A stretch of 64,000 bases of DNA. It comes from Obrimoposthia wandeli. Its lineage: Eukaryota. Each line of letters opens with the position of its first letter. Positions within the stretch are counted from its first letter, which is position 1. Location of the stretch: positions 372,001-436,000 of the forward strand of contig CDROCS010001382.1 in assembly GCA_977020255.1 (NCBI GenBank). The letters are read 5' to 3'. The notes under the pieces are model-generated. The model had not been told where the DNA came from. It did not search any database and saw nothing but the letters and a program-made list of their open reading frames with translations. Position numbers and translations under genes: made by a program. Below are positions 16,801-63,903 of the stretch, piece after piece.

Positions 16801-17080
16801 TCCTGAATGCCAGTCTCGACCAGCTAGTGGAGAATGTTGCTGCTGTTCCTATTACGAAAACAGTGTTCCCGGCTCATCTCATAGGAAGAAAAGGGATATT
16901 TCCCTAAGACATGGCAATATCAGAGACTGCTCTCAGAAACATTAACAGTCTACCGCCTAAATGGAAAGCAGAAATCACAGATGGCCAATATGAACTTACG
17001 AAGAAGGTGTGGCTCGAGATGAAGTGTACATCACTTTTGGACTATATGATCCATTACCTGAAGCTAGACGTCTACCTTAA
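13880..17080 (+). pseudogene. Protein-primed family B DNA polymerase (PolB) of P1, decayed, interrupted by a foldback element and 3'-truncated
   Basis: N-terminal CPIC...H..H zinc motif; LEQYSERG (terminal-protein region); vOTU-like NLCFIFS; VIYADFEV (exonuclease I); CYLC...KVRDHDH; VVFHNLRGYNMH; KGIFP; YMIHYLKLDVYL. Confidence 0.88.
15492..16354. mobile_element. Non-autonomous foldback/MITE, Mutator-like (9-bp TSD GCTGTTATC, about 390-bp inverted arms with 15-bp subterminal tandem repeats)
   Basis: TSD at 15483-15491 and 16355-16363; termini GGT...ACC; GGACAATTACCCGCC arrays mirrored at both ends. PolB reading (PIAAGMLLS|SIRAAP) is restored when the element is removed. Confidence 0.92.
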
Positions 17081-29600: not shown

Positions 29601-32600
29601 TTTAGAAGAATGATATGTTCTCATCATTTGTATATCAAAGAGGCGTTTTTAGCATGACAGGAATTGGTCTATAGGTACAAAGTACAAACATGATGTATGT
29701 GACGTGTGCGATTAGACACCATTTTTGTTAGATGTGGCCAAATGAATAAATAAAGCAATAAAAACTAACAAAAATTAGTAGTATTTCTTTTAATATACAA
29801 TACATATATAAAAGGTATAAAAAATTAAATATATTTTTCCTTCTGAATTGATATTATATATACACTAACTTTCTTTTAATCTTATTTTCAATAAATAGGA
29901 TGATTTTCTACATTAAGCTCTAACCTGTGAGTCGGTGAGAACAGTCAAAAGGGAAGTTAATTGATCGATCATATGCTGGTCGTAGATAATGCTATATTGA
30001 CACTGCCGAATAAGAACTGTAATAAATTCCACAAAATTGGATCGAAATCGCTTAGCTTGTGGCGTGGTCTGGATCAAGGGGTATTCACAATTATCTTCAT
30101 CGAATTCCTCTGTAAGCTTACGCACGACTTGTGCTAACGACACTTGTGGTGTGAAAATATCTTCTGTGAGTTTGCCTTTGCAGCCGCAGCTCGAGATAAA
30201 CAGCTGCATCAAATCGAGCATGGCTGCGATGCGGTCTGTATTGTAATGCTCAATCCAGTCATCGACGATTGTCTGAATCGGAGCTCGACCGAATCGAACC
30301 GCAGTATACAGATTGTTTTCACTGTCTGAAGATAAGTTGAATTGTTTGTAAACCTCTTGATATTTAGGATAATAAAATTTTAAACTATAATGGGTGAAGT
30401 AATATTGAAATGCTTCATATATAATCAAATTTAGATTATTTTTAAAGGTTGTTTTTAAGCAGCGGTTTTTTTTTGTTTTTTTTTAACTTTGAAAAATTAG
30501 TAACACAATTATATTTATTAATTCAAAAGCTTCTTTTAATAAACAAAATTCTAACTTAAAAAATAGATTCGTAAAATTATTGAACATTACACTTTCGTAC
30601 CATGTGAAAATTATATAAAACTACATGATCTCTACTTTTTTAATCTCTAACTTAAAAAATAGCTTCGTAAAATTATTGAAGATTAGTCATTCATGGGAAT
30701 GTTCAATATTTTATTTGAAGTATCGAAATATTTTTAATGCGACCCTTTTGGAAAATCTGTCAACCCCCTTCGAGGGTCGCCCCCACCCTTTGGAAACAGC
30801 AGATTTAATACATAATGCACTGTTTTTAATATTCCTTTTTGTGGTTCAAATCATAAATTAGTTTCTGAGGTTTTTAATTATATAATGATTTATTATTTAA
30901 TGTATTGATAATAAAAATAATAGCCTTTTCTTTTGTTTTACAAACATAACTTAAATACAGTAAGAAGCCTCTTACCATTTACTGGACCATTGCTAATATT
31001 GTTTTGTGTTGACTGTCGACCTCGGCGTTTTTTAATCACTGGAGGGCCCATGTTGCCCAGATTATCGTCTGTAATCTTATTTTTACTTTGTTCTGTGTGA
31101 TTTATAGTAGCAATATCGAACGGCTTAGCACGATTGTCATAATTGACTTGGTTGTAACCTGTGAAAAATCAAAGATATGTATTATTTATGTAGATTTTTA
31201 ATTATATTTGTAATATTTTAATTAAAAAAGCTGCTTCAAAAAATATATTAACAAATCTGCAATAACTCACCTGTATTCATATTCATTTGCAATCCATAAT
31301 CAACATAAGTTCCTTCATTTATTGGCATCATATTCCCACTTGTATTTTGACTATAGTAACTATTATAATGTGGTGCAGCTAAATTCTAAATAAAATTAAA
31401 AAATTAAACTAAAGTTGTGATTAAAAAACGGAATATTTTATTGCAATATATGATGAACAAAGCAAACTTAATAACATGACAAAATCATTTAGAAATGTAC
31501 TAAAATATAATTTTAAAACATCAAAAATGTTTAGTTATGAATAAATAACATAATCCAATATTTGGAACTAAGCTAAAACTTAAAATTCAATATTTAGATT
31601 TTTTTTCTCTGTATTATTTCTAGGACTAATATCAATTTTAGTTAGGTCTATGGAATCCTACAAAGTTTGGTCACAAACATATCTAATACTTCGTTAAGAT
31701 AATCATTATATTACTGTTATTTGATTGGCATTTATTGGAAATCAAAATTTAGAAATTCAGTTATTTAAAGTATTTTTCCTCAAAAACGTCATATTGCTAA
31801 TTACACTATATAAATTGTTAGTCAATATACATAATTAAAATAACTCTAAAAGAGATACAGTGATTTAAAGATGTTTTTCAAAACTTCATATAGCTAACAA
31901 TTACAATATACAAATAATCAGTAAATATATATGTTGAAACCATTTTTTTAAATCCAGTGATTTAAAGTTGTTTTTCAAAACATTTTACAGCTAACAATTA
32001 CACTATAGTAATTATCAGTCAATATATATGTTTTAAAAAATATTTAAAAGAAATCCAGTGATTGAAAGATTTTTTTTTCCTCATAAACGTCATACTGCTA
32101 ATAACACTATATAAATTGTCATTCAATATACATGTTTAAAAAAACATTTAAAAGAAATCCAGAGATTTATTTTTTTTTCTTAAAAAATGCACTGCTAACA
32201 ATTACACTATACAAAATACATGTTGATTGTCAATAAGAAACATTCTAATATTGTTAAAATGTTATTTACATCTCAATACCATAATAGTATTGAAAATTAA
32301 TAGATTTAAGAAATGAAAGTACAATAATTTTTAAAGATATATCATGGCAACTCTAATTAAGTTTTATCTATATATTTGTTGCAAAAAGTTCGTATATGCC
32401 AGTTTACTCGATAATCTATTATCCATGCAATTTAGAATAAAAATTATATTTAATGTGCAAGACAAAACAAACATTTCATAAACATGCCCATCCGTCGTAT
32501 GCAATCAAATTCTATAGATTTTTCAAACTATTTTTAAAGAATAAAGATAGAAAATCAATATTAAATTATGTGATTCTCGTAACATGTTAATCTTTATAAA

Positions 32601-38100: not shown

Positions 38101-39778
38101 TTATCCATTTGATTTATAGTATATATTGTTGGTTCAGTTGATTTTTGAACTATTATTTCTTCTTTATATCTTTCTAAATCGGGGTATTGTGCAGATTCTG
38201 TATTCTCTTTATTTTTATTGTCTACCATCTTCTGTAAATTTTTTTTCTCGCATTTCGTTCGATAATGCTTTCACTGTATTTTGATGATGGTTAAATATAA
38301 GAAATTTTGCTAAAAATAGAAAACATCCCAAAATTAGTTTCCATTTTAATCCACCAACTTTATAAATGTAATATGTAGATAAAATTTGACTCAAAAGGAT
38401 CTTAAAGCATATAAGTAGTGCATATATTCCTACAAGTCCAGAAAATGCTTGACCAAAAATTAAAAATTTTCCCATATTTTTGATATTGTATTTTGTGTAT
38501 CTTTTATAAAATGATTTGGAGAAAGTAATAAATCCTAATCAGGACGGCCAATTCCGCCTGGTACTGATCTTTCAATAATTTGTGTTAAAATTCGTGATCT
38601 AATTTGAGGAAATAAAATTTATTTTCTTAATTTATCTATGTCTTCTTGTATGTATATGCCTTTTGTATTTAGTTCATTGTCTGATTTTATTTCTATGTCG
38701 TTATTGAGGTTGGTTAATTGTAATTTTAATGGTTGAGCAACTATGTCTCTCCTTGAGAGTGATATCCAAATATCTTTTGAGATTTGATAATGAGGTGCCA
38801 TTATGTTTGAGCAATTCATTTCCTTTATACTGAATGTATTAAAAAGTATTATTCTACAAATAATGAATGATTTTTGTATGAAATTGGTAATTCTTTAGTG
38901 CATTTATTATGATTTCATATATTAACTATTACTTTTTTACATTGATAAGTATATAGCACTTATCCCATTACTCTTCCAAAATTACCATCAGCTAGCGGTA
39001 ATAATGGTGTTATTAATTCTGGATTTGTAGCAATAATTGCCAATTTTGTTTTCAAATTTTTTTGGTTTAATTTACAGTCATTCATTATTGTTTCTCTATA
39101 AATTGCTTCTATTGTCATTAATCCTTTGTGATAAAAATAATCTAATTTATTATTAAAATAATCGTAATTTTTTATGTTAAATTTTGTTGGTGTCGTTTTT
39201 GCATTATATATTTTTTCTTTACTTAAATATATTCCTTTATAATTAGTTGTATAAATAGAGTGTCCACATCGGGATTCCTCTTTCTTTTTAATAAATCGCA
39301 TTCCAGAACCTTGTTCTGTTGACATTAAAATAGTTGGGGTTGATGTTTTTTGAATTTTTCTTGTCCTATATTTTTTATGTATATCTTTTGGCACTCTTTG
39401 ATCAAGTTCCGAGTCATCTTTAAATCTTTGACCTTGAATTATTTGAAAATTTTCAGATTTAAGGAGTATTAATTTACATTGGTCTGTTTTTAACTTATAA
39501 TATAAAATTGAGGATCCTGTATTGCAATGATCTATATTTGCTTCGCAAAATGGCATAGTTACCATATTATTTGTAGATGGGTCAAATGTTGCCTTGAACG
39601 TTCTGAGTTCTACCTCAAAGTTTTTTATAACGACTAAGCCACTTTGTTTGACTCCCATCACAACGTATGTACCTGTTGTACATGCACCGTCAGATTTTAT
39701 TGTTCCTACTACTGTAATCATTTGTTGTATAATTTTATTTTTTACTGCTCGTACTTTAATTTCTCTATCTATTCTTAG
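35135..39778 (-). mobile_element. Gypsy-type retroelement A with a glycoprotein (env-like) gene directly upstream of PR-RT-RH-IN; no gag or LTR visible
   Basis: Env-like 39778-38215, PR 38228-37818 (KALIDTGS), RT 37300-36500 ([19 protein letters not shown]), RNase H (TDASGYALGAVL, ERECLAI), integrase 35800-35135 (HLSTKKT..RLKLKYYW, VAMDVMGP). Contains frameshifts. Confidence 0.92.
38215..39778 (-). pseudogene. Chuvirus-like/herpes gB-like (class III) envelope glycoprotein with C-terminal TM region, 5'-truncated
   Basis: GTIKSDGACTTG; RCGHSIYTTNYKGIYL; YFNNKLDYFY; DCKLN..NLKTKLAI..TNPE; GNFGRVMG; GIY..EDI..LR..ILFP; TM FLIFGQAFSGLVGIY...YYIYKVGGLKWKLILG. Confidence 0.8.
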
Positions 39779-42240
39779 TGTCACGTTTCTGGAGTGGAAG
39801 ACGGCAATGTTTTGCAGCGACATCGTGAAGTTCTTCCCTTGCAGTATGGCTCACAAGCTCATCAGAACAGTTAAGCATTCTGAAAGCATGAACCACCGCT
39901 TGGACGGCGTAGTCGTCAAGGGCAGAAGTTAGGCCAAGGCCACATTGTTTGTTGGATGCATATAGATAGGAGTTACTGGTTGTTTTCGGCAGATGAACTA
40001 TACTTTTGATAACTCCTCTAATACGAATATCATAGCCACCTTGAGACAATTTTCGACTATCTTCAGAACGCTCGTAAGAGTGCAACAGTGCAAGTCGTAT
40101 CCATGCCAGTCTCAGAGTGAATGTAAGCCTAGAGATAATAAAAGTTTTTTAGGTGTCGATCATTTGCCAAGGCCGAAGTGTGCTTTTGGCAATCTTCTCC
40201 ATGTCGAAAACGGCCGTATCGAGAAGTTCTTTAGGATCTTGTCTGTGAGAATGACCAAATTCTACACCTAAGTAGCGATAAGGCGGGTCCAAAACTGTCG
40301 GCATCTCGCTTCCACTGATCATAATTCGGTACACCGGACTCACAAAACGCGGCTGGGGCAGGATATTACGCCTGCTGCAGTAGAGAATACTGGGGTTCGA
40401 AGTTTTCTCAGGAGAGGCTGGATCAGCAGGGAGTCGCAAGTATCCGCACTTTCCAGGGTTAAATTTGAGATTTGACCAGGTTGCCATCTCTTCAGCTTTG
40501 TCAACCATAGCTTATAGGACATCATTGGTGCTGGCAAATAAGGCCAAATCATTGGCATAGGACAGTACATCGATCCTCTTACCATGTAATTGAATGTCTG
40601 TATCTGGAATTCTAGATATTTCAGAAAGGACCGGGTAACCTGAAAAAAAAGTAACATTGAAAGTGGGCAACCCTGTCTAACTCCACGACTGATCGGGATT
40701 GCTCCAGTTGTAAGTAGTCCACAGAAGTATCTGGAATCACATTCAGAGTAGAGTGACTTGATCAGCTTACATGAGTTATCACTTATCCCCATTCGTCGAT
40801 ATGTCAAGGAAGCCAATGTGGACCTTCAAAATGAAGTTGTCTCGTTTCCGACTCTCGATGATGCTGTTCAGGATGAATGTATGCTCAGTGCACTCCTCGA
40901 AATTCCCAGCACGTTTCTGGAGAGGATGCAGCAGCTGGTTCTTGGTAATTCATTCTTGTATTTGCCAGGCAAGACATGACGTGAATACCCTGTAGCATGT
41001 ATTCAGCATGGCAATAGGACGCCATGAAGAAACCTGGTCGTACTTACCATATTTGTTTGGTTTGGGTATCATCAATGTCCTAAACTGCCGCCAGGTTGTT
41101 GGCATGATTATATCAGTCATAATCTTGTTGAATAAGCTGGTGAGTAGAGCACAGCTTCGGTCGCAGTATCGTATGTCTGAGTAGAGTATATTGTCCTCTC
41201 CGGGTGAGAAGTCAGATATACTCTTCAGAGTCATGCAACCTCGGTAGGAGTCATGTTTCCAAAGCAGAATTCCGGACCGGGCTTAATATTGGGACAGCAG
41301 TTCCAATCAGTGGCGGCCAGAGCTGGAGACTTCGATTCACAATATTGTGTAAGATTCTCCAGAAATGGATATGTTTCAGCAGATGTGGAATCCAGGATCT
41401 TGTCAATGACTGACTTCCGATTATGCCAGTACAACTGTGGAAGACTGTTAATGTCATCGTCATCTCTAGGGATAACATATGGTATAAAGAGAGACTTCTC
41501 CTTTCTGTGTCTGGGACGGTAGATGTGAGATAGAATCCCATTAGAGAGCTCCTCAATATCAGCATCGACACTGTTAGTCAGCAAGTCCTTTGCGATTTCG
41601 ATCCAGAATGCTTTACATAACAAAGGTTTCTGCTGTTCAACAACAATTTTCCTTTTAACAGGAGCAAGTTTTTTGAGATTCAACTCAATCAGCTTCTTCC
41701 TGATATTCCGGACGTCTATATTAAGCAGAGGTTACTTACTGGATAACCGTGATGCAATGCCACATATAACGGGACCACTGTCGCCATGGGTAGTGCGGCA
41801 CATCTGGAAGTCGTCACATATAGAAGAACTAAATGTAACATTGTTGGCCCGTGTAAAGATATCGATGTATTGAGTGAGTTTCTCTCCCAAACACTTAATA
41901 TCCAATTGCGGGGTCAGGCCGGTGTAGTTGAAGACGCAAGAGATCAATCTAATCCTGTTGTAAGTGAACAGGATCCAGCCTCTACCAGATATTTTGTGCG
42001 GGGCAATGACCAAATCGATGTCTTTGAACATTTTGAAAGTAATGTTCTCGTCAACGAATGATTCATCGCCCAGAAGTAAGCACCTGGTGGCGACAGGAGA
42101 GAGCACAAGTCCCCACTCGTTGTTGATTGTTCTGTTAAGCAGCACCTCCACATTTTTGGGCGAGAAGAAAACAGTACTCCTAATTTCCTCAATGCCGTCG
42201 GTGCTGCTCACTCAAGCGAAGACTGTCCAGAATCACAGCC
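39779..42240 (-). mobile_element. Non-LTR retrotransposon (R2/NeSL-like RT), decayed and 3'-truncated
   Basis: IPKPNK...SSWRPIAMLNTCYRVFT; GVRQGCPLSMLLF; SYANDL (YADD equivalent); NLKFNPGKC; PYRYLGV; LRPWQMID. No endonuclease domain is retained. Confidence 0.88.
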
Positions 42241-42339: not shown

Positions 42340-43790
42340 TTACTGTGGCCATATAAGTTTCTTGTCGAAAATCACACCTACCACACCGTATAAACCACAC
42401 AAGGTTTTTCCAAGAGATTGAGAATACGCATTTCGAACAGAAAAATAGAAATAGATAAGAATTACACACCTGATGCAAAAATTGGTGTGAGACGATATGA
42501 AACAGTTACAAGAATAGGTCAACGATAGAATGATGGATCGTGCCGTGGAGGAACAAAAAAATGTGCGTGGTACCAAAGTAACATCCTTAATAATGGACAT
42601 GACTTACTAGATTGAATTAAAAACATGGACAGCCAGTTTTGATAAAACTACAAAAAGTATGATGAAGTTTCCGGAGAATAACAGTTACATCTTGTGATAC
42701 AGGCGAATCCACAATTGTATATCAAGTAGACCCAAAACAATTTTCGTTGATATTTTTGAAAGAAATCAAATTTAATAAAATAAAAGGTTTCCTGTATAAT
42801 AAAGGAGGAGAAGGATTCCATAACAAAACAGGACCAATTCCTACGACGCCAACACCTACGCTGTTAATGGCAACATCAACAGAAGAAGGATTGATATTTA
42901 TCAAAATAGGAAATAAAGCGCGATGCGGAATGACTGTTAGTACTACAAACTATCCTGGAATAGTTTTGTCAAAAGAATCAATAGCGATGACTGGAACCAA
43001 ACTAAAATCTAGTGATATGCAGCTACACATGTATTTTAATAATAAAATTGATTTCTATTATCATAAAGGATTGATTCAAATGGAACAGTTATATCAAATG
43101 ATGGTTGAGAGAGATTGCCAATTAAATAAGGAGATCATAAGAACTAAGTTGGCACTAGCTATTACAAATCCAGACACGGTAGCCCCATTATTGCCTCTAG
43201 ACGAAGGAGTATTTGCTAAAACTATGGGAGAAGTAATTTATACGTACAGGTCTAAGAAAAGTGCTGGTACAATTGAGAAAAACGACTTGATGTACAAGTG
43301 AATTACTTGTAACGTATAACTCAAAACCACTTTTTGTAGAACCAATAACAAGGATGATACTTCCAAAGGACACTCCAACTAAAGAGATAAGTTGCTCTAA
43401 TATAATGGCAGTTGAATACCAATTATCGAGAGACTTATGGATAACGTTGCCTGACCGTAAGTAAACAAACACTCCAACTAAGATTTTTAAAGTGCAGGTT
43501 TATATAATGAGGAAGATCTAAAAGTGGCCTGGAACGAAATAATGTTTCCAGTAAGAACATCCAGAGTACTTAAGGAAATGGTACATTGTACATTACCACC
43601 AGGAGCTACATATGCGAATTTTGATATGATATTGTCGGCAAGTCATTTCAAAGAAGCGGCACACCATACTCGTAGAAAATGTGAGGAAAATTCCTTGTAT
43701 TAGGACAATTATTTTCAGGTATCATATTTATTTATGTTATAATAAAATTTGTACATTAAATTATAACTCAAGTGTTGTCAGAAATTCAAA
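42340..43790 (+). pseudogene. Chuvirus-like/gB-like envelope glycoprotein of element B
   Basis: DGSCRGGT; RCGMTVSTTNYPGIVL; YFNNKIDFYY; DCQLNKEIIRTKLALAITNPD; FAKTMGEVIYTY; GLYNEEDL...IMFP; TM FLVLGQLFSGIIFIY. Clearly homologous to 38215-39778. Confidence 0.8.
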
Positions 43791-44570: not shown

Positions 44571-44963
44571 GATAAATACTTTATACCACATGGGAAATAT
44601 ACATGGAGCACAGCGACCAGCAGCTATCATTAGGATGAACAATTTAAAAATAAAAGCCTTAATAGACACAGGCACAGTAGCATTGATAGTGAGTGAAGAT
44701 TATTTGACAGAGGAACAGAATCAACAATGTCAGAATCAGATAAATTCTTGGTATCGGTCAACGGAAACCCTGTAAACGTGACGGGAATATTACCATGTAC
44801 ATTTGTAATATGATGTAATACGACCACTATACCAGTTAGAATCATGAGAGAGTGTCATGAACTAACCATTTTAGGAATGGGTCAACTGTCACAACTCAAA
44901 GGAATAAGTATCAGAAGTGTAAAGTGTCGGTTCTAAAACAATAGCACACAAAGCCCCCCCCCC

Positions 44964-47700
44964 AATTAGTGCAATCTCTAAAGTTTAACATGTCATTATT
45001 AGTAAAAACCATAGGAACATTAATACTATTTACCCAAAAATCTGCCACTTCACCATTTATCAACTCAGTTAATTTATCTACAAAGTTTTTAGCACACTGC
45101 AGACCGTAATAACTGAAATATTGTATTGAATTATTAGTGTTGTTTTTCAAAATCATCCCTATAGATATTGGTTTATGAATGTGTTTGAAAGTATTATGTG
45201 GTTCGAGTATTGACTCAAAGTCGGCATATACAACAAATGGTGGCGCAATAGATTTAGACCAGTCGGAAAATTGACACTTGATCTCTTTAGGCATTGTAAA
45301 CAAGGTTGTTAAATCTGTATTAATATTACAATGTGCTCTGTGTTTGTCATATGAAATCGTGGTTCGAAATCCAAAAAGACATTTCTCACACCAAAAGAGA
45401 CGCACATTATATTTTTGAGTATTTAAAAGTCTATTCAGGTTTGTAATCCCTGTATAGTGATAATTACCGCTCTGTTCCAACAGCAACAAGTTTACTACTT
45501 TTTCGCACTGTTTAAGACTCGTTCTATAAATAACATTAACATCTGGGTTTTTAAACACTAGATGACTACTATGAGGCTCTACCTTTGTAGGTTTATAGGA
45601 GAATACTGTTATCGCTATATTATTGAGTTTTTTAAACGCCTTGATACCGTCTATCCTCATAGGACCAGGCTCACATATAAGTTCATTTAAATAATCATTA
45701 TAGTTTTCAACTCTTTGTCTGTTTCGATTGAAATCTTTATAGTGTAGGATACTGAGAACAGCGTATTTAAAACACTGATCATCAGTATTATTTACGTTCA
45801 CTATAGATAGTGTTTTAGCAAGCGCAACCGGGGTTTTTATAAATGATGATCCTGCTACGTTTGAAAGTGCGGTAAATTTAAAGGATACCAACAGAATTTT
45901 AAATGCTGACCATCCCGAACTCATATCCTTATAAATTTCAATTTTATTGTTGAGCTCAACTGTTCTTGTAGTGATAAAATCTTGTTCAAAAATATTTGCT
46001 TTACAGCTTACATGCTATGTTTTATGTTGACCCTCGTTATTGACAAATTCGGTTTCAACACCAAACTGTATTTTACAGGGACCAAACACATCTATACTGC
46101 TAGTAAGTTCAGTTAGCATAGTATCGTTAATGTATAGTTTAAGCATGTTTAATCCACTAACATCAAAAACAAGGTTTGATTGAATTGCACCTCCTATTTG
46201 ATTGTTAAAAGTTAATGTATTATCTGAATTAATTGTAACAATATTATCAAAGTCATCATCCGTAATAGTTAGGAGTGAGTCGAAAAAATCATTTTCTGTT
46301 ATAAACTCGTCCTGATCTATAAGTTCATCAATATTATTATTATTTAAGATTTCATTAGGGCTTAAAGGCTCAATAATTTTTACAACTTCAGGATAAGTAT
46401 CAATTTCTACAACACTATCCGGTTCCCACGAGTCTACCACATCAAACTCTTCAGTAAAATTATTAGTTTTTGCTATTTTATTGTTGTCTATTGTTGGTAC
46501 TCTCATTACTTTACGTTTGTATGCTGACTTTTTAGACTTAAAATACGTCAGATGATCCTTATGATCATTATAAAATGTTTGATAGTCAATACAATATAAC
46601 ACATCACAATGTGGACAAATAAAACCGCTTTTAAATTTATAATATTTAAGCATTTCACTATGACATTCTATTCCATGATTAACGTTTGTGCAATACTTGT
46701 ACAATGTACATAAGTTACTTCCTCCACGAAGTTTAGGGTATACATGGATAATAGCCCCCTCATGTAAAACATCACCGATAATAGCTTCCCTTTCAAAGGG
46801 CATGCCATTACGGTTAAAATAAATTTGATCAGTCTCAAAGACTTCATATAATTTATTTGCCAGATCTGTAATTTTCAGACCTGGACTAATATTAATGGGT
46901 TTGCAAGACCCTAATAAATTTGCAAATATTGTTATATCTGCTGGTAGTTTTCTCAATCTACGCAGCTTCTGACGAAATCTTTTACCTTTCCTACCTTCTG
47001 TTTTAAGTTTACTTAAATCAATATTTTGATTTTTTACTTTCTTTAATTGGTTAAAATATTTTTTAAACGGGATATTTTCAAAACCCGAGTATATCTCATT
47101 TACGTTGAAATTTTCTACTGAATTAACAGGTGACCCAACAGGTGTTCCTGGTTTAAAAAGTAAGGGGTAACCTCTTGATTTAATTAACTTATTCTGCGAC
47201 CCCATTCCAGGAGTTAGACTGCCCCGCGTTACTGGGCAGCTATCGCAGTCGGGAGAATAAGATTTTATATCCCTTATATCCCCAAAAAGTTTATATAAAT
47301 GAGTATCATATGGAGAATGAGAATGAGAATGAGAAGATGAAGAAGAAGAAGAAGGAAGTTGAGAGTGAGAAGATTTCTCAAGAGATAAAAAAACTTTTGA
47401 CATTTTCTTCTTTTCATCATCATCATCATATATTGTTGTTGGCATATTCTTCTTTTTCTTCTGCTTTCGGCTTCTTTTCTTAGTAGGAGCATGGTGCGTT
47501 GAAAGCCATGGTGCGATTGATATTGGCAGTGGTGTGACACTCTGTATTGCTAAAATAAATTAAAAATAATAATAATAATAATCAAAATTACCTTTCTTCA
47601 CAGGTGTCGCATCCAAGTCGACATCATCATCATCATCAGCCACTGCAGGCTTCATCGTCCATCTTTTCTTAGCATTATACGCGAAAATAATTTTTGACAT
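44964..47700 (-). pseudogene. PolB N-terminal part (spliced leader exons, ubiquitin-like domain, zinc motif, terminal-protein region, vOTU-like domain, exonuclease I), one in-frame stop, truncated by the TIR
   Basis: ORFs 47445-46015 and 45924-44911 are in the same frame, separated by one TAG. Motifs: SSGW, GSSFIKTP, NNTDDQCFKYAVLSILH, YHYTGI, VVYADFESIL. Leader exon 47700-47592 is flanked by 39-nt and 42-nt GT-AG introns. Confidence 0.9.
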
Positions 47701-48163
47701 CTAAAAAAATAATAATAAAAATAAAATCAAAATACTTACTTTTCGAATTGTGAATGAAATTGATAAATGACACTACACTGATTGTTTATATATGGTTCAC
47801 AATCAGTGTAGTTGCTGCCCTAGATGTACACGTCACACATCACGTGTGTACTTACAAACTAGGAATGCGTAATAAAGACTCTTTATTCCCTAGTTGCTAC
47901 ACACGTGATCATAAAGGTTAATTACGGTCAATCAATTATGAATATTTTCATAACCGATATTCACACCGTTAAACTTTAAATTTTTTAAAATAATTAACAC
48001 CATTAATTTTCTCTTAATTAGTAGATTTTAAATCTATTTTTTAATTTATCAAAACTCAAAAAAAAAAAAAAATTTAATTTCGATGGGACAGCTATTTATA
48101 AAACAAATACGATTTTGAATACAAATTTTATTACCAATCAACACAAATAAAAAGGTTTGACAT

Positions 48164-48487
48164 TTATATAGTTTGATCATACAACCATAAGATACATAGT
48201 GGACCGCAATTAGTAGTCAGTGGGTTTTGAGAACGAATTTTGTTGTAATATACATGTTTTCCTTGAGACTCTACATGCTTGATAAGTTTTCCCGGATAGT
48301 ATACTCCAAGAGGGTCATACACATGTACAGAATTCCGTCTCACGAATAACGCAATCCAGTGTTCTCCAGGAAGATTTGAGGTATGTGTATTGACAATATA
48401 TCCCCCAGGCGTTAATGTTGGGATTTTTTCCAACGGGTATACACCCTTAAATCGCGGTCCGAGCAGCAAACTAGTTATTTCATTCAC
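48164..48487 (-). CDS. Polinton adenain-like cysteine protease
   Basis: FKGVYP...YIVNTH...GEHWIAL...YDPLG...QNP.T.NCGPLCILWL (His, Asp, Gln, Cys). Confidence 0.9.
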   Translation of the reverse strand: MNEITSLLLGPRFKGVYPLEKIPTLTPGGYIVNTHTSNLPGEHWIALFVRRNSVHVYDPLGVYYPGKLIKHVESQGKHVYYNKIRSQNPLTTNCGPLCILWLYDQTI

Positions 48488-48571
48488 CTGAACAGTACTT
48501 TGGATTAATAAAATCTTAAAACATAAATTAAAAACTCACTTCATACAATCACACGTCGGCCTTTAGTTATT

Positions 48572-48982
48572 TCAAACTCGTTTTCTTCGTTTGTTTATAC
48601 TAGATGCTTTCTTTCTACCACTACCCTCTTGCTTTTTAGTTTCGGGTTCAACCGTTTGTGCTGCTTCACTTGCTTTACGTTTACGTCGATTTTTAATAAT
48701 TTTAACAACTGTACCAAAAGCTTCCTTAGCCTCCGGTATGGCTCCGGCAACTTCCCCTAGTGCATGTTGTTTAAGCATTGGTAACACAGATTTGTTGTTC
48801 ATTATTACATCTTGAACTGTTTTAACTCCAACACGGCCTAATCTTTTCAGTATAGGGAATGCTAACCGTCCCAATGTTTTCAACCATCCCGAACCGTACT
48901 GTTTACCTACAAAATATGGTAATTCACCACCTTGTTGAGGTCCACTAAATGTCTCAATTATATTCATAACTGTAATGGACAA
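48572..48982 (-). CDS. Polinton core/structural protein with QxGxG motifs, C-terminus cut by a deletion
   Basis: QQGGELPYF.GKQYGSGWLKTLGRLAFPILK; KQEGSG. The P3 homologue continues past KRRKRV. Confidence 0.75.
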   Translation of the reverse strand: MSITVMNIIETFSGPQQGGELPYFVGKQYGSGWLKTLGRLAFPILKRLGRVGVKTVQDVIMNNKSVLPMLKQHALGEVAGAIPEAKEAFGTVVKIIKNRRKRKASEAAQTVEPETKKQEGSGRKKASSINKRRKRV

Positions 48983-49003
48983 CTATTTTTGAATACAGAT
49001 TGT

Positions 49004-50173
49004 TTATACCTGATCTATACAACGGACATGTATGGTAAGGGATACTTTTGCATTGTTGGAAAAACTTATTGGAACACCTGCATCGTTTCTAATATTAATT
49101 TCAATGTTTGAGATTACATTTGATGCTAAAGGGATATACATGGGTCTGTATATTGCGATATTAACCGTGTCTCCTGGTGCTTTATTTTTATCTAACCATA
49201 TAGATTTTAATAAGGGTATCATTTGACCTCCAACGTTTACAGGTTCACACAGACTAGAATACAAGTACATGTGATCAAACTCGTAATTTAATCGAGGTAG
49301 TCCAGACCCGTTGCCCGTAAATCGTGATTTATCTAACCCTAATACATACCATAAACGTTGATCAAATCCAATATGCTCAATTCCATTCTTTAATACAAAT
49401 TTTATTAGCTTATCATTATCATCAATATAAAATCTTTTAAATATGACGTCGCATTTAGATTTAATGTATGCTACTAATGCATTTACATTATTATTATTTA
49501 AATCTTCTGTAAATACAATTTTCTTGTTGTATGAACCGGTTTTATAATGCATATATTGTAAATTATGTGCACTGCAATCAGGTCTGATAGACGTTGATCC
49601 AAGTAAAACTCCTTTATCATCAGACTCGAAACCTTCTGAAGTTAATGTATTGAAAATGAATCCTAATTCATTTTTAGCGTCAGCATCCATCTTGATATAG
49701 AATTTTTTGTTGTTGACGGATTTTATTAGTACAACATTATCCTTTTTATCAATACCTACACCAACTGTGCTTAAGGAAATAGAAAGCTTTGCAATCTTAT
49801 CTTTAGACGTGACGGTGAGTTTTGATATTTTATTAATTGTCTTTTTAATAACTTTTGGTTCTGATTTATCACCATGCAATTGCGGTTCTTTCTTTTCTAC
49901 TTCTACTTGAGTATGAATTACTGATAAAGATATTTGATCAGTCTGTTGATTGGAGAATTTAATAGAATAATTAATTTCACTGCCCTTATTTAAAATAACA
50001 GGAGTGTTTGTGTACGTAAATTCAGTTAATGCCGCCTCCCATTTACCATTTAACGTAATTGGATTCTCCCAATCTACAGTGAATAAGGAAGCCATATTAT
50101 TAGGTTGAGTTTTCGGACAACTATTACTCGGTAAAATCATATAGAAGTCTCTATCTGGCTTGCTTTGATCCAT
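49004..50173 (-). CDS. Polinton minor capsid (penton) protein
   Basis: FYMILPSNS...QPNN.ASLF...ITLNGKWEAALTEF; YLYSSLCEP..VG..IPLLK...YIPL...IEINIRND.G. Confidence 0.9.
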   Translation of the reverse strand: MDQSKPDRDFYMILPSNSCPKTQPNNMASLFTVDWENPITLNGKWEAALTEFTYTNTPVILNKGSEINYSIKFSNQQTDQISLSVIHTQVEVEKKEPQLHGDKSEPKVIKKTINKISKLTVTSKDKIAKLSISLSTVGVGIDKKDNVVLIKSVNNKKFYIKMDADAKNELGFIFNTLTSEGFESDDKGVLLGSTSIRPDCSAHNLQYMHYKTGSYNKKIVFTEDLNNNNVNALVAYIKSKCDVIFKRFYIDDNDKLIKFVLKNGIEHIGFDQRLWYVLGLDKSRFTGNGSGLPRLNYEFDHMYLYSSLCEPVNVGGQMIPLLKSIWLDKNKAPGDTVNIAIYRPMYIPLASNVISNIEINIRNDAGVPISFSNNAKVSLTIHVRCIDQV

Positions 50174-51171
50174 GTTGATTCAGAATATCCATGCCACTTT
50201 AGGAGATATTGTTTATTCTTACCACGGCCTTTAGATTTTACGACTTCTTGGATACGGAAAAGTGTAGGTTTATCAATTACTTGTAGTTCAGGTTCATAAA
50301 ATTTCCCTGTTATTACATTACAGTCATCATCAACTATAGAGTACATTACAGGATTTGCACGTTTGTCTATTTTCTCTATCCTAAACACTTCATCACTCCA
50401 ATTCTGATCAAAGTTTTTAATAAAGGGGCTACCACTAAACTTTGATATCCGAACATAATCACCAGTCTTATGTTTGGGTTTATTAACTTTATCGACTTGA
50501 TTACGACTCAACCAAATTTCCATTGCATTTTTATCATTAATATCGACAGGTCTCAATCCGTCTAAACCTCTATGCTTACTGTGATTGTATGAAGTCATAA
50601 CTTTTGGTAAAACGTCAACCCATCTTTTATTGCCTTGTGCAATAAAATGTCTTTTTAATCGATCTCTCAATGTTCTATTAAACCTTTCAACTAGGGCAGC
50701 TTTGAATTGTGAAACTACAGAGTAATGTTCAATATTTAATTTTTTAAATAAACTACCTACATTTTTGTTGTAAAACTCTTTACCCTTATCAGTTTGCACA
50801 TGTATGGGGACAGTTTTATCAGTCATTATACTTAGAGCAGCCTCTATATCCTTACCTGATTTAGATTTTACAGGTAATGCACGCGCATACCTTGTAAACA
50901 CGTCAATACATGTTAAAATATACTTGTTACCATCATTTATACTTGCATATGGTATCATTTCCATCAAATCGGCCTGCCATAAATCGTTAGGACCGCTTGT
51001 TCTGTATGCTCGAGTCGGGAACTTCCGCTTCATTGGCTTGTTTAGACTGTATGCTAGCTGATTGCTCAGCCATTTCTGAGTTTTCTTTTGACTCGATTGA
51101 CTTTTTAATGATAGTTTGCCAATGCCGCTGTACCCAGCTGGGTTTTCGGGATCGTACCATATCGTTTCCAT
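50137..51171 (-). CDS. Polinton retroviral-like (RVE) integrase with C-terminal chromodomain, intact ORF
   Basis: WYDPENPAG; WQADL...YILTCIDVFTRYA; QTDKGKEF; KAALVERFNRTL; GDYVRISK; YLLKWHGY. Confidence 0.95.
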   Translation of the reverse strand: METIWYDPENPAGYSGIGKLSLKSQSSQKKTQKWLSNQLAYSLNKPMKRKFPTRAYRTSGPNDLWQADLMEMIPYASINDGNKYILTCIDVFTRYARALPVKSKSGKDIEAALSIMTDKTVPIHVQTDKGKEFYNKNVGSLFKKLNIEHYSVVSQFKAALVERFNRTLRDRLKRHFIAQGNKRWVDVLPKVMTSYNHSKHRGLDGLRPVDINDKNAMEIWLSRNQVDKVNKPKHKTGDYVRISKFSGSPFIKNFDQNWSDEVFRIEKIDKRANPVMYSIVDDDCNVITGKFYEPELQVIDKPTLFRIQEVVKSKGRGKNKQYLLKWHGYSESTWIKASQIETSI

Positions 51172-51222
51172 TACAACAAGTGAATTTAAAATCGATGTTT
51201 GGTATGTTATTACCCATTTTGT

Positions 51223-51552
51223 TTATGAGTTTATCAATTTTGCAATCAAAGGAGATACTAAAGTAGCAATTATAGGTATTAATGCACCGATAAAACCACC
51301 TTTTTGTTTTAGAATTACTCTACGTTTACCAGTTTTACTTTTAGTATTCACTAAATCAAGTAAAGCTTTTTGATGTTTTCTAAGGTTATGTTTATGATTA
51401 CCGATTTTTACAGTACCTTTTGTAATATTAAACAAGACTTCAACCAACTTATCAATAACAAAGGGTGGAAATGACTTGAGTATACGTTGTCTATATATGC
51501 TTGGAGCCTTGATTAAAGCCTGAAAGTAGGGAAGTATAGATTTTGATAACAT
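51223..51552 (-). CDS. Polinton small core protein with KGG site and amphipathic C-terminal helix
   Basis: LVEVLFNITKG...KRRVILKQKGGFIGALIPIIATLVSPLIAKLINS. Confidence 0.75.
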   Translation of the reverse strand: MLSKSILPYFQALIKAPSIYRQRILKSFPPFVIDKLVEVLFNITKGTVKIGNHKHNLRKHQKALLDLVNTKSKTGKRRVILKQKGGFIGALIPIIATLVSPLIAKLINS

Positions 51553-51583
51553 GTTTAATGAATTAAACTATTTGCAATATTGT

Positions 51584-51904
51584 TTATAGTTTAATCCATT
51601 TACCAACTAGTTTATTTACACGCTTTTTATCCGACTTCTTAACCGACTTTCCAACTGCTTTCTTAACAGGTTTCTTCTTTAATGGTTTCTTTTTTACAGG
51701 TTTTCTCTTTACTGTCTTTACCGATTTCTTTAATGATTCATCGACTACTTTACGCTGATGAAGCACTGATTTAATAAGATTTTTAATATGAGCATTCTTC
51801 TTTAACATCAATTTGTTATCATTAGCGTGTAATTTATCACCCGGTCTCCATTTAGGTCCAACTCCACTAGGCATTGTTTCTTTCATAAATGACATGATTA
51901 ACAA
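51584..51904 (-). CDS. Lysine-rich basic protein (possible DNA-condensing core protein)
   Basis: KKPVKKKPLKKKPVKK repeats; lies between the ATPase and the core protein. Confidence 0.6.
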   Translation of the reverse strand: MLIMSFMKETMPSGVGPKWRPGDKLHANDNKLMLKKNAHIKNLIKSVLHQRKVVDESLKKSVKTVKRKPVKKKPLKKKPVKKAVGKSVKKSDKKRVNKLVGKWIKL

Positions 51905-52548
51905 GTAGATAGGCTTTTCTTTTGTTTATATACAAAATCATTATTGAAAATATCGGTTCTCACGCGTAAATCGTCTGGACATTCCTGTGTAAAATCTAAA
52001 AACAAGTATCCATGAGGGTTAGTTGTTGCATCTTGAAATGCGTCAATCAAATATTGCTTATTACAAGGGAAAGCTTGACGGGCAACAAAGTCGATAACCG
52101 TTTGATCTCGCGGATTTTTAAATAATACTAGATAATGTACATTTAAATTCCGAGTACGGTGTTGACCGCCTTAATGAAAGAGATTTTGAGTGATAAAAAT
52201 CACTGTTACATTTGTATGTCTAGCTATTTTGGTAAACAGGTTATTAAAACCCGACTCTTTATTTGCTTCATCAAACAAATCATCAATTACAATGACATCT
52301 CCTGAATTTAACCTCTCAGACCATTTATTATCAAAACCATTAATAAAATGAATACCCTTCAATTTACCTAATTCTGTTCGTGTTAGACCAGATTCACCTA
52401 CACCTCCGTAATGCCAGTATATTCTACTAAACTTTTGATTAAACATGTTTTTATTTTGAAGTAATTTAGTTACAAAATGTGTTTTCCCACTCCCACTAGG
52501 TCCTACTGTTTGGTAAACCGCGTTATTTTTAAGTTTTATCATCATCAA
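51898..52548 (-). pseudogene. A32-like packaging ATPase with one in-frame stop
   Basis: VGPSGSGKTHFV; IVIDDL; VIFITQNLFH*GGQHRTRNLNVHYLVLFKNPRD...DLRVRTDIF. Confidence 0.92.
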
Positions 52549-52575
52549 TAATAATAAATCAAAAGAAACGATTGT

Positions 52576-52842
52576 TTATATACGTTTTATTAATATATAC
52601 AACAACAGAGAATTAAAAATTGATGTAGAAAAGGTTATATACATCATGTTTGAACGATTAATTTGAACAAATTTTTCAAAATCCTTAATCCGTTTGATAT
52701 CTCTATAGACATGGGTGCAAACAATTTCCTTTATATTATTACGAGAAAGTCCATCAAAACTAGAAAAGTATTGAACTCCATTTATTGTTCCGTTTATAAT
52801 TTCCTCGACTGCATCATCAACTAATTTATCGTTTTCATCCAT
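52576..52842 (-). CDS. Hypothetical Polinton accessory protein
   Basis: 88-aa ORF co-oriented between IAP and ATPase; no motif recognised. Confidence 0.45.
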   Translation of the reverse strand: MDENDKLVDDAVEEIINGTINGVQYFSSFDGLSRNNIKEIVCTHVYRDIKRIKDFEKFVQINRSNMMYITFSTSIFNSLLLYILIKRI

Positions 52843-52860
52843 TTATATAAATCATAAATT

Positions 52861-53760
52861 TCAATTGTTTATACCATGAAATTTTACATTTCTTACTCTC
52901 CGTTCGATCAGACATCTGCATACTGGACATGAATGTAACATTCTAGAACATGATATACATGTATTTACATGTCCACAAGGGAGAAATACTACTTCAATAT
53001 GATTATTTAAACATACTACACATTCGGGTACCTTTAAAATGTATGAAAGTATATTTATATATTGTTTCTCAGGTTTCATTTCTAAATTAGATAAATCACA
53101 AAGCAATTCAAATAGTGAATTGTATTCACCATATCGCATCATTTTATATTTTAAAACAGATTTTATTCTATCTTTTGTGAAAAACTTTTTCAAATATCTG
53201 ATTTGGTTTGTATCCATCAACATATCGAATTTCTCGATAGTTAAAGGATATTCAATTATACAATCTGTTTCGATTTTCTCAATAACATTAGCCTCATTAT
53301 AGGGTTCTAAACTGTTTGAATAGCATATATCAGGTAATTTTATATCAATATCTGATACATGTACTTTTCCAATCAATGGTGATGTATCAAAATCGATTTT
53401 CTTGTTCATAGTTTCAATTATTGGTACATTTGAAACATTTAACTTTAAAAGAAATGGACATGTAGGAAAAAATTTCATATGTTGCTTCATTGGTTTAAGA
53501 TACCATTCCCATTCGGATAACGCACCTTGACAGTATATACATTTTACTTTATCGGTTGAATCATCATCATGTTTATAAAATCCGGCTTTAGCTAAATCAT
53601 TTACAGATTGTTTCCCTTTAAAATTTATAATTAATGATCTTAATCTTTCACTTTCATGTCTATATTTCCAGTGTAAAACTTTCATTCTAGAATAACCTAC
53701 TTTTCGTCTAACTAAAACATCATCAACAGTTGTATAATGAAGTATATAATCAACTAGCAT
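52861..53760 (-). CDS. Inhibitor of apoptosis (single BIR + RING), intact ORF
   Basis: LAKAGFY...VKCIYCQGALSEW...PMKQHMKFFPTCPF; CVVC...VVFLPCGHVNTCISC...CPVCR. Confidence 0.93.
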   Translation of the reverse strand: MLVDYILHYTTVDDVLVRRKVGYSRMKVLHWKYRHESERLRSLIINFKGKQSVNDLAKAGFYKHDDDSTDKVKCIYCQGALSEWEWYLKPMKQHMKFFPTCPFLLKLNVSNVPIIETMNKKIDFDTSPLIGKVHVSDIDIKLPDICYSNSLEPYNEANVIEKIETDCIIEYPLTIEKFDMLMDTNQIRYLKKFFTKDRIKSVLKYKMMRYGEYNSLFELLCDLSNLEMKPEKQYINILSYILKVPECVVCLNNHIEVVFLPCGHVNTCISCSRMLHSCPVCRCLIERRVRNVKFHGINN

Positions 53761-53801
53761 TTCAAATCATGTAAGAATAAAATTCAACTAAAATTTATTG
53801 T

Positions 53802-54293
53802 TTATATCAAAAGTAAAATATCAGTTATTATCAAAGTCACATCAAAGTGATAATCCAAATCCTTGAGACCGAGTATGACCACTTTCCCGCTTGCAAATAT
53901 GTTGACGCACAGAGGATTGTGTTTTGTAAACCTTAAAGCAGGAAACAACTCAGGTTCGAACATGCATGCAGCTCCACACTTTTGAGACAACTTGTATAGG
54001 TTCACCTTCTTACCTAAATCAACAGTAACCGTTACGGATTGAATACGATCAATCTTTATTCTAAATGGACACTTGAGCAAAGTTGTAGTAATAGGTTTCT
54101 TGCAACCCATTATCCTGCATGCTCCTAATAATAACTAACTAACTAACTAACATAAAAACATACCTGAACGGAAGATTATAAGGGTATAATCCTTACACCT
54201 GTGCACGTACTGACATGGTTTCCCGGTTTTGAAGGGTAAGTGACTGATGTCTCCTTTAACTTTACCTTTATAATTAATATTTGCAAGATTCAT
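53802..54293 (-). CDS. TBP-like protein, two exons (39-nt intron at 54163-54125)
   Basis: Splicing gives LIIFRSG|ACRIMGCK. The second repeat is IQSVTVTVDLG...MFEPELFPALRF...VNIFASGKVVILGLK. Confidence 0.82.
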
Positions 54294-54416
54294 GATTGAA
54301 TTGATGGAAATAACCCAATCTATATATAAAATTTTTAAGCTAAAGATTATCCAATCAGAATCGAGTATGATATATATATAAGCTACCACTTTTGGTATAG
54401 AATTCATTATTTTGAT

Positions 54417-55067
54417 ATGAACTCTAAACAAACTAAATCTCTTAAGTTCGAGAAGCCACCACCAACAAGGCTTACAGACACAGATGTGGATACCGATGAT
54501 GATGATGTAGTTTTTATATCAAAACCAAAGAAGCAAACTATGACAAGCAACAACCATAAACAAACCAAGACTATCAAGATTGAGAAGCAAGCAACAAATG
54601 AGGATCTCTTTATTGATGATATAGTCTCTACACCCAAACATAAGAAACCGTTCAACAATAAACCATCAGATGTAATATTTGAGTCTAATGATTTGAAGTA
54701 TACCAAGCCGGTTATGTTTTATAACTGGCAAATTAATTTTTTGAAGACTCCAATCATATATGGATTCATGTTTCCGGTGGCTCTGAATAAGTCAAAATAC
54801 GATTTCAAGATACATAGATTAAATCCGTCAGATATTGATGATCTTAACAAAACCTTTGAGTCGATGCATCTCAACATCATAGTTGGGAATCATATAATAA
54901 TTCGAGCTGATCCTAATCTTTTCAAGCGAGATCACGACTTTAATGTTGACAATATGGGAACTGGACTCAAGTGGATGATCGTCATTTCAATACAGGGATA
55001 CAAAATCAACTGTACAGGTCTTCATAAACCAATCTGGAAAATTACTGATGGACAAGTTCGCTTATAA
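54417..55067 (+). CDS. Hypothetical Polinton protein (216 aa), possibly OB-fold/SSB-like
   Basis: Intact ORF opposite to the core genes; acidic and basic N-terminus; C-terminal beta-strand pattern VISIQGY...PIWKI. Confidence 0.55.
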   Translation: MNSKQTKSLKFEKPPPTRLTDTDVDTDDDDVVFISKPKKQTMTSNNHKQTKTIKIEKQATNEDLFIDDIVSTPKHKKPFNNKPSDVIFESNDLKYTKPVMFYNWQINFLKTPIIYGFMFPVALNKSKYDFKIHRLNPSDIDDLNKTFESMHLNIIVGNHIIIRADPNLFKRDHDFNVDNMGTGLKWMIVISIQGYKINCTGLHKPIWKITDGQVRL

Positions 55068-55254
55068 TTGTACTAATATATATTTATCGATGTTACTTTG
55101 CTTTCTTCAATATAGACTCCTACTATAAACAATAACGTTTCTTAAGATAAAAACTGCGATAGCTGTCCGGTTATGCGGGGCAGTCTAACTCCTGGAATGA
55201 GGTCGCAGTACTAAGTAAATTAAATAGTTGCAAATAAAAATTTGGGACGGTCAA

Positions 55255-55425
55255 TTGTGTTTAATTTCAAAATTTTAATTTTTAATTTTCATATTTAATT
55301 TGAATTAAAATTTAAATTTTTTAATTTCCATATTTAATTTTTTAATTTTTAAATTTTTTTAAATTTTAAGTTTTAATTTTTAAAATTTTAATTTTTAAAT
55401 TTTAAAATTTTGAATTTTTTAAACC
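55255..55425. repeat. AT-rich low-complexity tandem repeat ((T)nAA units) near the Polinton end
   Basis: ttttaatttttaattttcatatttaattt... array. Confidence 0.7.
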
Positions 55426-55496
55426 ATATACAAATGTTACAAAATATTAACCTACATAATCGTAAGTGACGCATAAGACCAAACAAATTTCGAGAC

Positions 55497-55666
55497 GTAA
55501 AGTGTCGGTTCTAAAACAATAGCACACAAAGCCCCCCCCCCCCGAACAAGGCACAAGGAAGAAAGCACATCTGTATGACTAAACAAATTTCAGATGTGCT
55601 TTGTTCCTTGTGCCTTGTTCGGGGGGGGGGGCTTTGTGTGCTATTGTTTTAGAACCGACACTTTAC
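55497..55666. repeat. 170-bp near-perfect palindrome at the right end of P2
   Basis: Arms of about 76 bp (TIR, poly-C/G, gaacaaggcacaaggaa, aaagcacatctg) around a 17-nt loop. Confidence 0.93.
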
Positions 55667-56499
55667 ACTTCTAGTATCGATTTACAAGATCCAAGATTGA
55701 AGGATAGCACGTCAAACAGACAGATAAATCAAATAGACGTGATCATAAAGAATCCAATAACAATCGGTAAAAGATCACAATTTGTCATCCAAGGTCACAC
55801 CTTGTCGGAAGATAAAGGACCAATCATATTCGAACCATCACGAAATTTTATAGAAAAATACGGATTGCCAATCGTAAGTACAGTATGTCTGATCGAGAAT
55901 CACAAAATACCAGTTAGACTAATGAACACAATTACATCCTGTTATATAGAGGAATGAGGTTGGGAAAGATAGAACAATTAGAGAATTCCACAGTATGTGC
56001 TATGAAATAGGATAAGAATGTAAATGATTCCGAAGAAATAATAATCAAATCAGAAAGACTGACAACAAAAGAAAAGAAACAACTACTTGATCTAATACAT
56101 AAATTTCCAAAAGTAATAGCTAAAAATCCGTATGACATAGGAGAAACCCCTGTCATAAAACACACAATATCACTGACAGAAAACAAAGTAGTCAGAAGAA
56201 GACCATATCGAGTACCATTACAGCTACAAGATAAATTAAAACTCAGATAGAATATATGTCTAAAACAGGAGTAATTAGACCTAGTTTTTTACCATTTTCT
56301 GCAGCAGTAGTGTTAGTAAAAACATAAAGATGGAAAAATGAGATTATGTATAGATTTCAGAGAATTGAACAAGATCACAAGAAAATACGTATACCCATTA
56401 CCCAGAAACGAAGAGATGCTTGATAAATTAGGTAATTCAGACTATTTTACGACATTGGATTTGCAAAGTGGCTACTGGCAAATTGAAATAAAGGAAGAA

Positions 56500-63414: not shown

Positions 63415-63903
63415 ATGCAGGAATATATCATAGATTTTGAGGCTTTCATTAACAAAAATGGTGATTATATTATAAAAGAATTATGTATTATGGATGTATG
63501 TGACGTTTTTCATCCTTTGCATTTCATATTTCAAATAGATATCCCGTTTAAAAGTTTAGATTATAAAAAAAAATTTACTAATTTATATCTAACTAATTAC
63601 TTTCATTTATTAAAATGGAAAGAAGGATATAAGGCTTTTTGTGAAATATGTATTTTCGATACAATAACATCTAATTTTGATATAGAAAATGGAATTTTTT
63701 ATGTTTTAGATGAAATGGATGGCAAAAAATATAAGACTTTAAAAAAATATTTTCCCAAATTGAGGTTGAATACTTTAAATATTTCACGTGATCATCTATT
63801 AAAAATTCCACGAAATATTTGCTGTCCATATCGTAATCATGGTGACCATTGCGCATATAAAAAATCTTTAAGTTTTTCTTATTATTACTTGACATGTAGA
63901 TAA
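63415..63903 (+). CDS. Small DEDD-exonuclease-like Polinton accessory protein (segment P4)
   Basis: IIDFEAF...IIKELCI; C-terminal CPYRNH..HCA. Homologous to the decayed copy at 13153-13640 in P1. Confidence 0.65.
   Translation: MQEYIIDFEAFINKNGDYIIKELCIMDVCDVFHPLHFIFQIDIPFKSLDYKKKFTNLYLTNYFHLLKWKEGYKAFCEICIFDTITSNFDIENGIFYVLDEMDGKKYKTLKKYFPKLRLNTLNISRDHLLKIPRNICCPYRNHGDHCAYKKSLSFSYYYLTCR

Follow-up and report, generated by a model that had tools for sequence, protein, structure and literature searches.

A Polinton-encoded TBP-like protein and a candidate late-gene promoter box in Obrimoposthia wandeli

We found that Polintons in the genome of Obrimoposthia wandeli carry a gene for a reduced TBP-fold protein and that a short box, TATAAACA, recurs before several genes of the same elements. 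With a probability of roughly 0.6, we read the protein as the element's own late-gene promoter factor, which would act through TATAAACA, host TFIIB, and RNA polymerase II (Pol II). The gene for this "mini-TBP" and the TATAAACA box are linked by co-occurrence only, and the labels "early" and "late" are assigned from gene function. The window (the whole stretch of DNA analyzed, 64,000 nt, to which all coordinates refer) contains two copies of the gene:

54293-53802, minus strand: TBP-like gene of family A (copy A), ATG to TAA, 150 codons
54164..54293, minus strand: exon 1 of copy A, a reduced N-terminal TBP repeat with strands S1-S4
54125..54163, minus strand: intron of copy A, 39 nt, spliceosomal-type GT..AG, phase 1, in the Gly codon of IFRSG
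53802..54124, minus strand: exon 2 of copy A, with S5, a short linker replacing helix H2, a complete C-terminal repeat, and the EPELF stirrup
8954-9431, plus strand: copy B, a decayed family-B TBP-like gene with a Pfam TBP match in exon 2
9093-9129, plus strand: intervening stretch of copy B, 37 nt, at the same codon as the copy A intron, with a noncanonical donor

Exon 2 of copy A matches the Pfam TBP profile (PF00352) above the cut-off (E = 2.9e-13), the C-terminal repeat alone scoring, and also matches 35 solved TBP sequences; for exon 2 of copy B the profile match has E = 1.9e-10. Exon 1 alone has no Pfam match in either copy. The preliminary description of this DNA had reported both TBP repeats as visible in the two copies. 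The profile search bears out a TBP-fold gene, with an N-terminal repeat more reduced than that description implied.

The same description placed an intron at one codon in both copies (39 and 37 nt). Site and lengths stand, with the qualification that copy B is decayed and its donor noncanonical. The copy A intron contains in-frame stops. Across 30 family-A loci, the intron is GT..AG in all 30 and 34-43 nt long, a multiple of three in only eight; exon 1 is open in 30 of 30 and exon 2 is identical. Among 30 family-B loci the intron measures 37-38 nt and is GT..AG in 28, copy B having the sole noncanonical donor of its kind. Metagenomic homologues in the databases are contiguous through the intron-bearing Gly codon. 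Judged by sequence, the intron is real, since its length varies while exon 2 is identical and since homologues read straight through that codon. One metagenomic Polinton (L096:376-415) has a 40-nt GT..AG intron in the identical Gly codon; out of 55 metagenomic loci, the TBP ORF is continuous in 46 by a strict pattern and in two more on inspection. The intron would imply that the gene is transcribed in the nucleus and spliced by the host. In the databases, eight proteins of 99-109 aa have the exon-2 Met as their first residue, perhaps a sign of the same split. In Polintons L071, L078, L079, and L084, short GT..AG stretches rich in A and T run directly up to the ATG of an SSB-like gene, which suggests a second small intron 5' of that ATG.

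The TBP-like gene is abundant and belongs to a family of its own. A 24-nt family-A marker has 1,082 exact matches in the whole genome, and family B has at least 150 matches. In a third Polinton family (C) of the same genome, the TBP gene is divergent from PolB and has no intron, as seen in all five of the five PF03175-matching elements whose flanks were read. There are >100 metagenomic relatives, many of them in Polinton contigs: Among the 55 loci, 23 have a core Polinton gene, another 20 have accessory Polinton genes but no core gene, and 12, most of them short, have neither, and core genes are present in nine of 11 contigs of at least 4 kb. Two within-family pairs have dN/dS of ~0.38 and 0.31; between families dS is saturated. 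A recent duplicate of host TBP or TRF, or a passenger fragment without a function in the element, would agree with the eukaryotic type of the EPELF stirrup. However, exon 2 shares 29-33% identity with TBPs of the host and of giant viruses versus 37-64% with family members, and in a 32-row tree (one partial host row, L121, left out) 27 family rows split from four host rows and one NCLDV row with support of 100/99. Host TBP genes, moreover, are uninterrupted at the homologous codon, and the gene occurs in three Polinton families here and in metagenomic Polintons. Identity, tree, and distribution refute the duplicate or passenger reading, whose probability is practically nil, and with it the recent, single-locus host copy that the preliminary description had named as the outcome contrary to its proposal. 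These comparisons set the gene apart from any recent or local copy of a host gene. The eukaryotic-type stirrup points to a TBP of cells or of giant viruses as its probable ultimate origin; with its long branches, the tree favors neither the host nor a giant virus.

The host genome itself has at least four TBP-type genes (L117-L121; C60, C1092, C238, C968), two of which form a divergent pair that lacks introns and has altered residues in the N-lobe; it also has several TFIIB/Brf-like genes, the host TFIIB gene being split into exons. Queries with the ATPase and the putative major capsid protein (MCP) found no relatives in viral-contig scans, and none were found in the phage collection; the viral-contig scan for the TBP family had a full-length giant-virus TBP as its sole match. 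In two loci, L113 and L116, the TBP gene beside a distant ATPase (36%) encodes a variant that is less reduced and has a longer N-lobe; a box lies at -38 before that ATPase, and L116 also has a PLA2-domain gene. This variant may be an intermediate form, and the two loci suggest that both module types of adintoviruses have the TBP/box system. When the Obrimoposthia genome was queried with a distant ATPase, all matches were at 39-41%.

Both copies in the window lie among Polinton genes, as the preliminary description held. Copy A sits in a 10.76-kb insertion with 51-nt terminal inverted repeats (TIRs) and a 6-bp target duplication, and the hallmark rve integrase, PolB, packaging ATPase, and protease genes are all present:

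44913..44963, plus strand: left TIR, 51 nt, preceded by the 6-bp target-site duplication at 44907-44912
44914..46119, minus strand: protein-primed PolB, N-terminal fragment, the remainder missing in this copy; PF03175 match in related elements
48167..48535, minus strand: adenain-like protease (E = 0.008; homologue, E = 1.1e-7)
49004..50173, minus strand: putative penton/minor capsid gene, labeled from gene order; variant box at 50209-50216
50137..51171, minus strand: rve integrase with chromodomain; variant CATAAACA box at 51220-51227
51552-51223, minus strand: pX-like gene
51901..52545, minus strand: A32-like packaging ATPase, whose frame a stop codon interrupts in the window copy
52861..53760, minus strand: IAP gene (BIR + RING)
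54294..54416, no strand: divergent intergenic region with canonical TATA-like boxes at ~54320 and 54371-54381 and CCAAT at 54315 and 54351; putative early promoter of host type
54417..55067, plus strand: ORF216, a frequent TBP-gene neighbor whose C-terminal domain is predicted to be an OB-fold, ssDNA-binding-like
55622..55672, minus strand: right TIR, followed by the same 6-bp duplication at 55673-55678
~7970-17080: copy B element, a broken Polinton with IAP, ATPase, pX, capsid, protease, and PolB remnants

IAP and ORF216 flank the TBP gene in 30 of 30 family-A loci. The putative penton gene has no significant Pfam match. A putative MCP gene is absent from the window copy and present in seven of eight sampled family-A copies; its label comes mainly from gene order, one of eight homologues matching PF21738 weakly (E = 0.039) and none matching the PDB. 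The model of an ORF216 homologue has a pLDDT of 92, and its best BFVD matches are uncharacterized giant-virus proteins, with phage SSB rows weaker. ORF216 was considered as a TFIIB-like partner and rejected, the model being a beta-rich OB-like fold; there is no TFIIB Pfam match in the element ORFs scanned, among which several small ORFs have no assignment. An exonuclease label for a conserved 160-aa ORF, taken from a D-x-E motif, was likewise dropped for want of Pfam or PDB support.

The surroundings are rich in mobile DNA. The insertion at 44913-55672 carries a hairpin duplication of its terminal repeat at 55497-55672 and sits within a gypsy-like retroelement; an ~880-bp palindromic element with 15-nt subterminal repeats (15484-16367) is inserted in the PolB remnant of the copy B element. 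Gypsy-like elements with an env-like fusion glycoprotein gene of Monjiviricetes type are located at 38963-39850 and 42666-43298. A host STAG/SA cohesin subunit gene with large exons lies between mobile elements at 21300-30500 on the minus strand, and dual-specificity phosphatase ORFs are seen at 10116 and 61289.

The fold was modeled on P0026, an intronless homologue that is 54% identical to the window protein over exon 2, rather than on the window protein. The AlphaFold model (56 sequences) has a pLDDT of 96 and aligns over 147 of its 147 residues with human TBP 164-336 (7egb_P) at an rmsd of 2.4 Å (Z = 13.9, against 6.9 for the next unrelated fold), and Foldseek gives a TBP match with E = 2e-9. 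The TBP fold proposed from the letters thus reappears in this homologue as a predicted two-lobed saddle. The N-lobe of the model consists of strands only, helices H1 and H2 being absent (no helix of four or more residues). Its linkers are ~10 and 13 residues below the canonical lengths, the H2 linker having 19-20 residues versus 32, and the family has a median length of 150 aa without any extension.

We counted residues in 125 homologues of 135-200 aa, out of 145, with yeast numbering derived from the structure alignment and local alignments, a global hhalign of the N-half being uninformative. The E186-equivalent is Glu in 120 and Asp in five, and the E188-equivalent is Glu in all 125. F116, F190, and F207 are kept in 123-125 of the 125, and N69 and P191 are kept too; at the F99-equivalent, 96 homologues have Lys and 11 have Arg (107/125), though the internal-repeat alignment behind this assignment is weak (probability 31%, E = 5e-4). 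The preliminary description had singled out the DNA-contacting Phe residues for inspection; of the four that intercalate, three are kept and one is replaced, mostly by a basic residue. The rest of the DNA face is extensively altered. A100 becomes Pro in 122, V71 Asn in 120, V122 Arg in 123, T124 Met in 125, N159 Ser in 122, I194 Arg in 123, V203 Cys in 125, and L205 Asn in 125. V161 and T215 are also replaced, and most of the replacements are near-invariant. By a mapping to yeast numbering that we take to be correct, eight of the 15 base-contact positions listed in a Giardia TBP paper are changed nonconservatively. With one Phe and N159 lost, the protein may bind DNA weakly or in a different way.

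The Glu pair is the TFIIB contact, and the N-lobe is the surface for TFIIA, TAF1, Brf, and Mot1, according to Ravarani et al. (PMC7221094), who find the first of these Glu residues only ~40% conserved in other viral TBPs. I194, V203, and L205 are described as the altered-specificity (TBPm3) positions; the C-half of TBP is reported to read the 5' half of the box and the N-half the 3' half, in which C is disfavored (PMC1636458). The second Phe pair sits between box positions 7 and 8 (PMC1935006).

A role outside transcription is conceivable for such a protein, namely as a DNA-bending or ssDNA-binding factor in replication, integration, or packaging, together with the neighboring SSB-like protein. 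The SSB-like gene is present in 21 of the 55 metagenomic loci, and a Giardia TBP that lacks three Phe residues is reported to bind ssDNA (PMC12209930). However, the protein retains three of four Phe and the TFIIB stirrup, and the box tracks gene starts rather than element ends, so that we hold this role to be quite improbable.

The box itself was first noticed as TATAAACAA upstream of element-A genes, and ATAAACAA has 35 matches in the window versus 11 expected. The TATAAACA boxes of element A are as follows:

53799..53806, minus strand: 45 nt before the IAP ATG, overlapping the TBP stop codon
52866..52873, minus strand: 30 nt before an 88-codon ORF
52573..52580, minus strand: 34 nt before the packaging ATPase ATG
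51923..51930, minus strand: 34 nt before ORF103
51581..51588, minus strand: 35 nt before the pX-like gene
49001..49008, minus strand: 40 nt before ORF131
48592..48599, minus strand: within the end of ORF131; other family-A copies have it 41 nt ahead of the putative MCP gene

Elsewhere in the window, the start of a further Polinton (63415-63903) has, like locus L129, a conserved Cys/His-rich 160-aa ORF without a family assignment, preceded by a box at 63380.

We scored the box as ATAAAC at -60 to -25 of the ATG (mode ~-35) in the 55 metagenomic loci and nine stretches of the Obrimoposthia genome, after removing identical 40-nt duplicates. It is present before 18 of 18 ATPase genes, 10 of 11 pX genes, nine of 11 putative MCP genes, and 13 of 14 of the conserved 160-aa ORFs, and is rare before TBP (two of 46), PolB (zero of four), and SSB-like genes (two of 12). 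It is also missing before most integrase (present in three of 11), putative penton (three of 10), and ORF131 (three of 10) starts, where the choice of ATG is uncertain. The background is 3% of windows, and 50 of 55 observed compares with a shuffle maximum of seven; since the counted loci are related, these counts are not independent. The base before ATAAAC is T in 57 of 63 cases and the base after it is A in 59 of 63. Family-wide, the TBP genes have TATAWAD upstream in 26 of 47 cases and CCAAT in 19 of 47.

The genes being tightly packed, the box might instead signal polyadenylation or termination, with the TBP-like protein a general booster of element transcription. It does overlap the upstream TAA at five element-A junctions, and it is found near 14 of 82 stop codons that have no following ORF. 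Near stops with a following ORF, however, it is found in 44 of 83 cases; the box tracks the next ATG and not the previous stop, which favors a promoter. The distance to the next ATG is constant at ~35 nt, whereas relative to the preceding stop its position ranges between +103 nt and the interior of the coding sequence. In family C no box follows the final gene of the run, and none is seen at the PolB end. The box also precedes divergent SSB-like genes that have no co-oriented gene upstream. We judge the termination-signal reading very unlikely.

The near-invariant TFIIB-contact Glu pair combined with a diverged DNA face, and the several divergent TBP paralogues of the host, would also suit a decoy in host shut-off: The protein would titrate TFIIB or occupy host TATA boxes, and a host factor (forkhead-type or a TBP paralogue) would read TATAAACA. 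ATAAACA, which resembles a forkhead consensus, counts on the same side. However, the altered residues of the DNA face hardly vary among 125 homologues with identities of ~40-70%, which is better fitted by a fixed ligand, and the box is on the coding strand at a TATA-like fixed distance. A decoy is unlikely in our estimate. Between the two actions offered in the preliminary description, redirecting or blocking Pol II initiation, redirection is favored by the position-fixed, element-specific box before packaging and putative capsid genes and by the conserved TFIIB-contact Glu pair; blocking has less support.

A late-gene promoter factor would work as follows. Host TBP would transcribe the TBP-like gene early, from a putative host-type TATA/CCAAT promoter, and the message would be spliced in the nucleus. 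The mini-TBP would then bind TATAAACA, which lies ~35 nt ahead of the packaging genes and the putative capsid genes, favoring it over TATAAAAG. Read as a TATA box, TATAAACA has C at position 7, under the most-changed lobe, and the rewired DNA face would accept this C, which host TBP disfavors. TBP and TFIIB are a textbook, DNA-dependent pair; host TFIIB would dock on the two stirrup glutamates that are kept, and host Pol II would be recruited, while the loss of the N-lobe helices would free the mini-TBP from control by TFIIA, TAF1, Brf1, and Mot1. This simple model leaves the rewiring of the C-lobe DNA face unexplained, since the 5' half of the box is canonical TATA. A broader proposal, to which we would give slightly less than an even chance, is that the orthogonal mini-TBP forms a one-protein late switch in animal Polintons/adintoviruses, reading TATAAACA, recruiting TFIIB and Pol II, and being immune to Mot1, TFIIA, and TAF1.

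These results bear on how Polintons time their capsid genes and on whether Polintons are viruses with staged expression. A conserved TBP of their own and a matching box make the question directly testable with one small protein and an 8-bp site. If the late-gene reading is true, the protein would be a TBP of naturally altered specificity that, in contrast to the TBPs of giant viruses, still works with the TFIIB of its host, and late transcription in herpesviruses would have an independent parallel. Should the one-protein switch hold as well, no smaller viral pre-initiation factor would be known, and a staged life cycle that produces virions would be implied.

Cellular TBPs (human 7egb_P, yeast 1ytb) share the two-lobed saddle, the EPELF C-lobe stirrup, and three intercalating Phe residues with the mini-TBP. 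Their core has ~180 aa with H1 and H2 in the N-lobe, whereas the mini-TBP has ~150 aa, no H1 or H2 in the model, and Lys or Arg for the first Phe. The TBPs of NCLDVs and mirusviruses are also virus-encoded TBP folds, for which loss of the N-lobe regulatory signature is reported too; these are generally described as accompanied by a TFIIB of their own and as variable at the TFIIB-contact Glu, whereas the mini-TBP keeps both Glu residues.

The elements resemble Polintons/Mavericks/adintoviruses (Starrett et al. 2021; Barreat and Katzourakis 2021) in their TIRs, 6-bp duplication, rve, PolB, A32 ATPase, adenain, pX-like, and IAP genes. The preliminary description knew of no TBP in the standard Polinton gene set. 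Searches of the open-access literature for a TBP in Polintons, or for its promoter, yielded one trace, a "TBP" label in a map legend of Starrett et al. (PMC8502044; bioRxiv 697771), in a section on non-animal data sets that covers MELD viruses with adintovirus-like PolB; the carrier element is not identifiable from the legend. The supplement of that paper has no TBP match, and the accessible text of other Polinton papers has no TBP or TATA term, so the claim largely stands, the label lowering the novelty a little. Intact vertebrate Mavericks are reported to be intronless (Barreat and Katzourakis, PMC8097293), unlike the TBP-like gene here, whose intron, common to two families and one metagenomic element, departs from that report.

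The proposed function resembles that of the beta- and gammaherpesvirus TBP mimics (ORF24 of KSHV, BcRF1 of EBV, and UL87 of HCMV), where a viral TBP-like factor and a modified TATA box before structural genes likewise use host Pol II (PMC6541308), and models of BcRF1 and UL87-like proteins are weak fold matches. The herpesvirus factors are large, bind Pol II directly within a six-protein complex, and read a TATT box at late promoters. The mini-TBP, in contrast, has 150 aa, keeps the TFIIB contact, and has no known partner, and its box differs from TATA at position 7 and not at position 4. By this analogy, the mini-TBP would be a functional analogue of the ORF24/BcRF1/UL87 system rather than a member of it.
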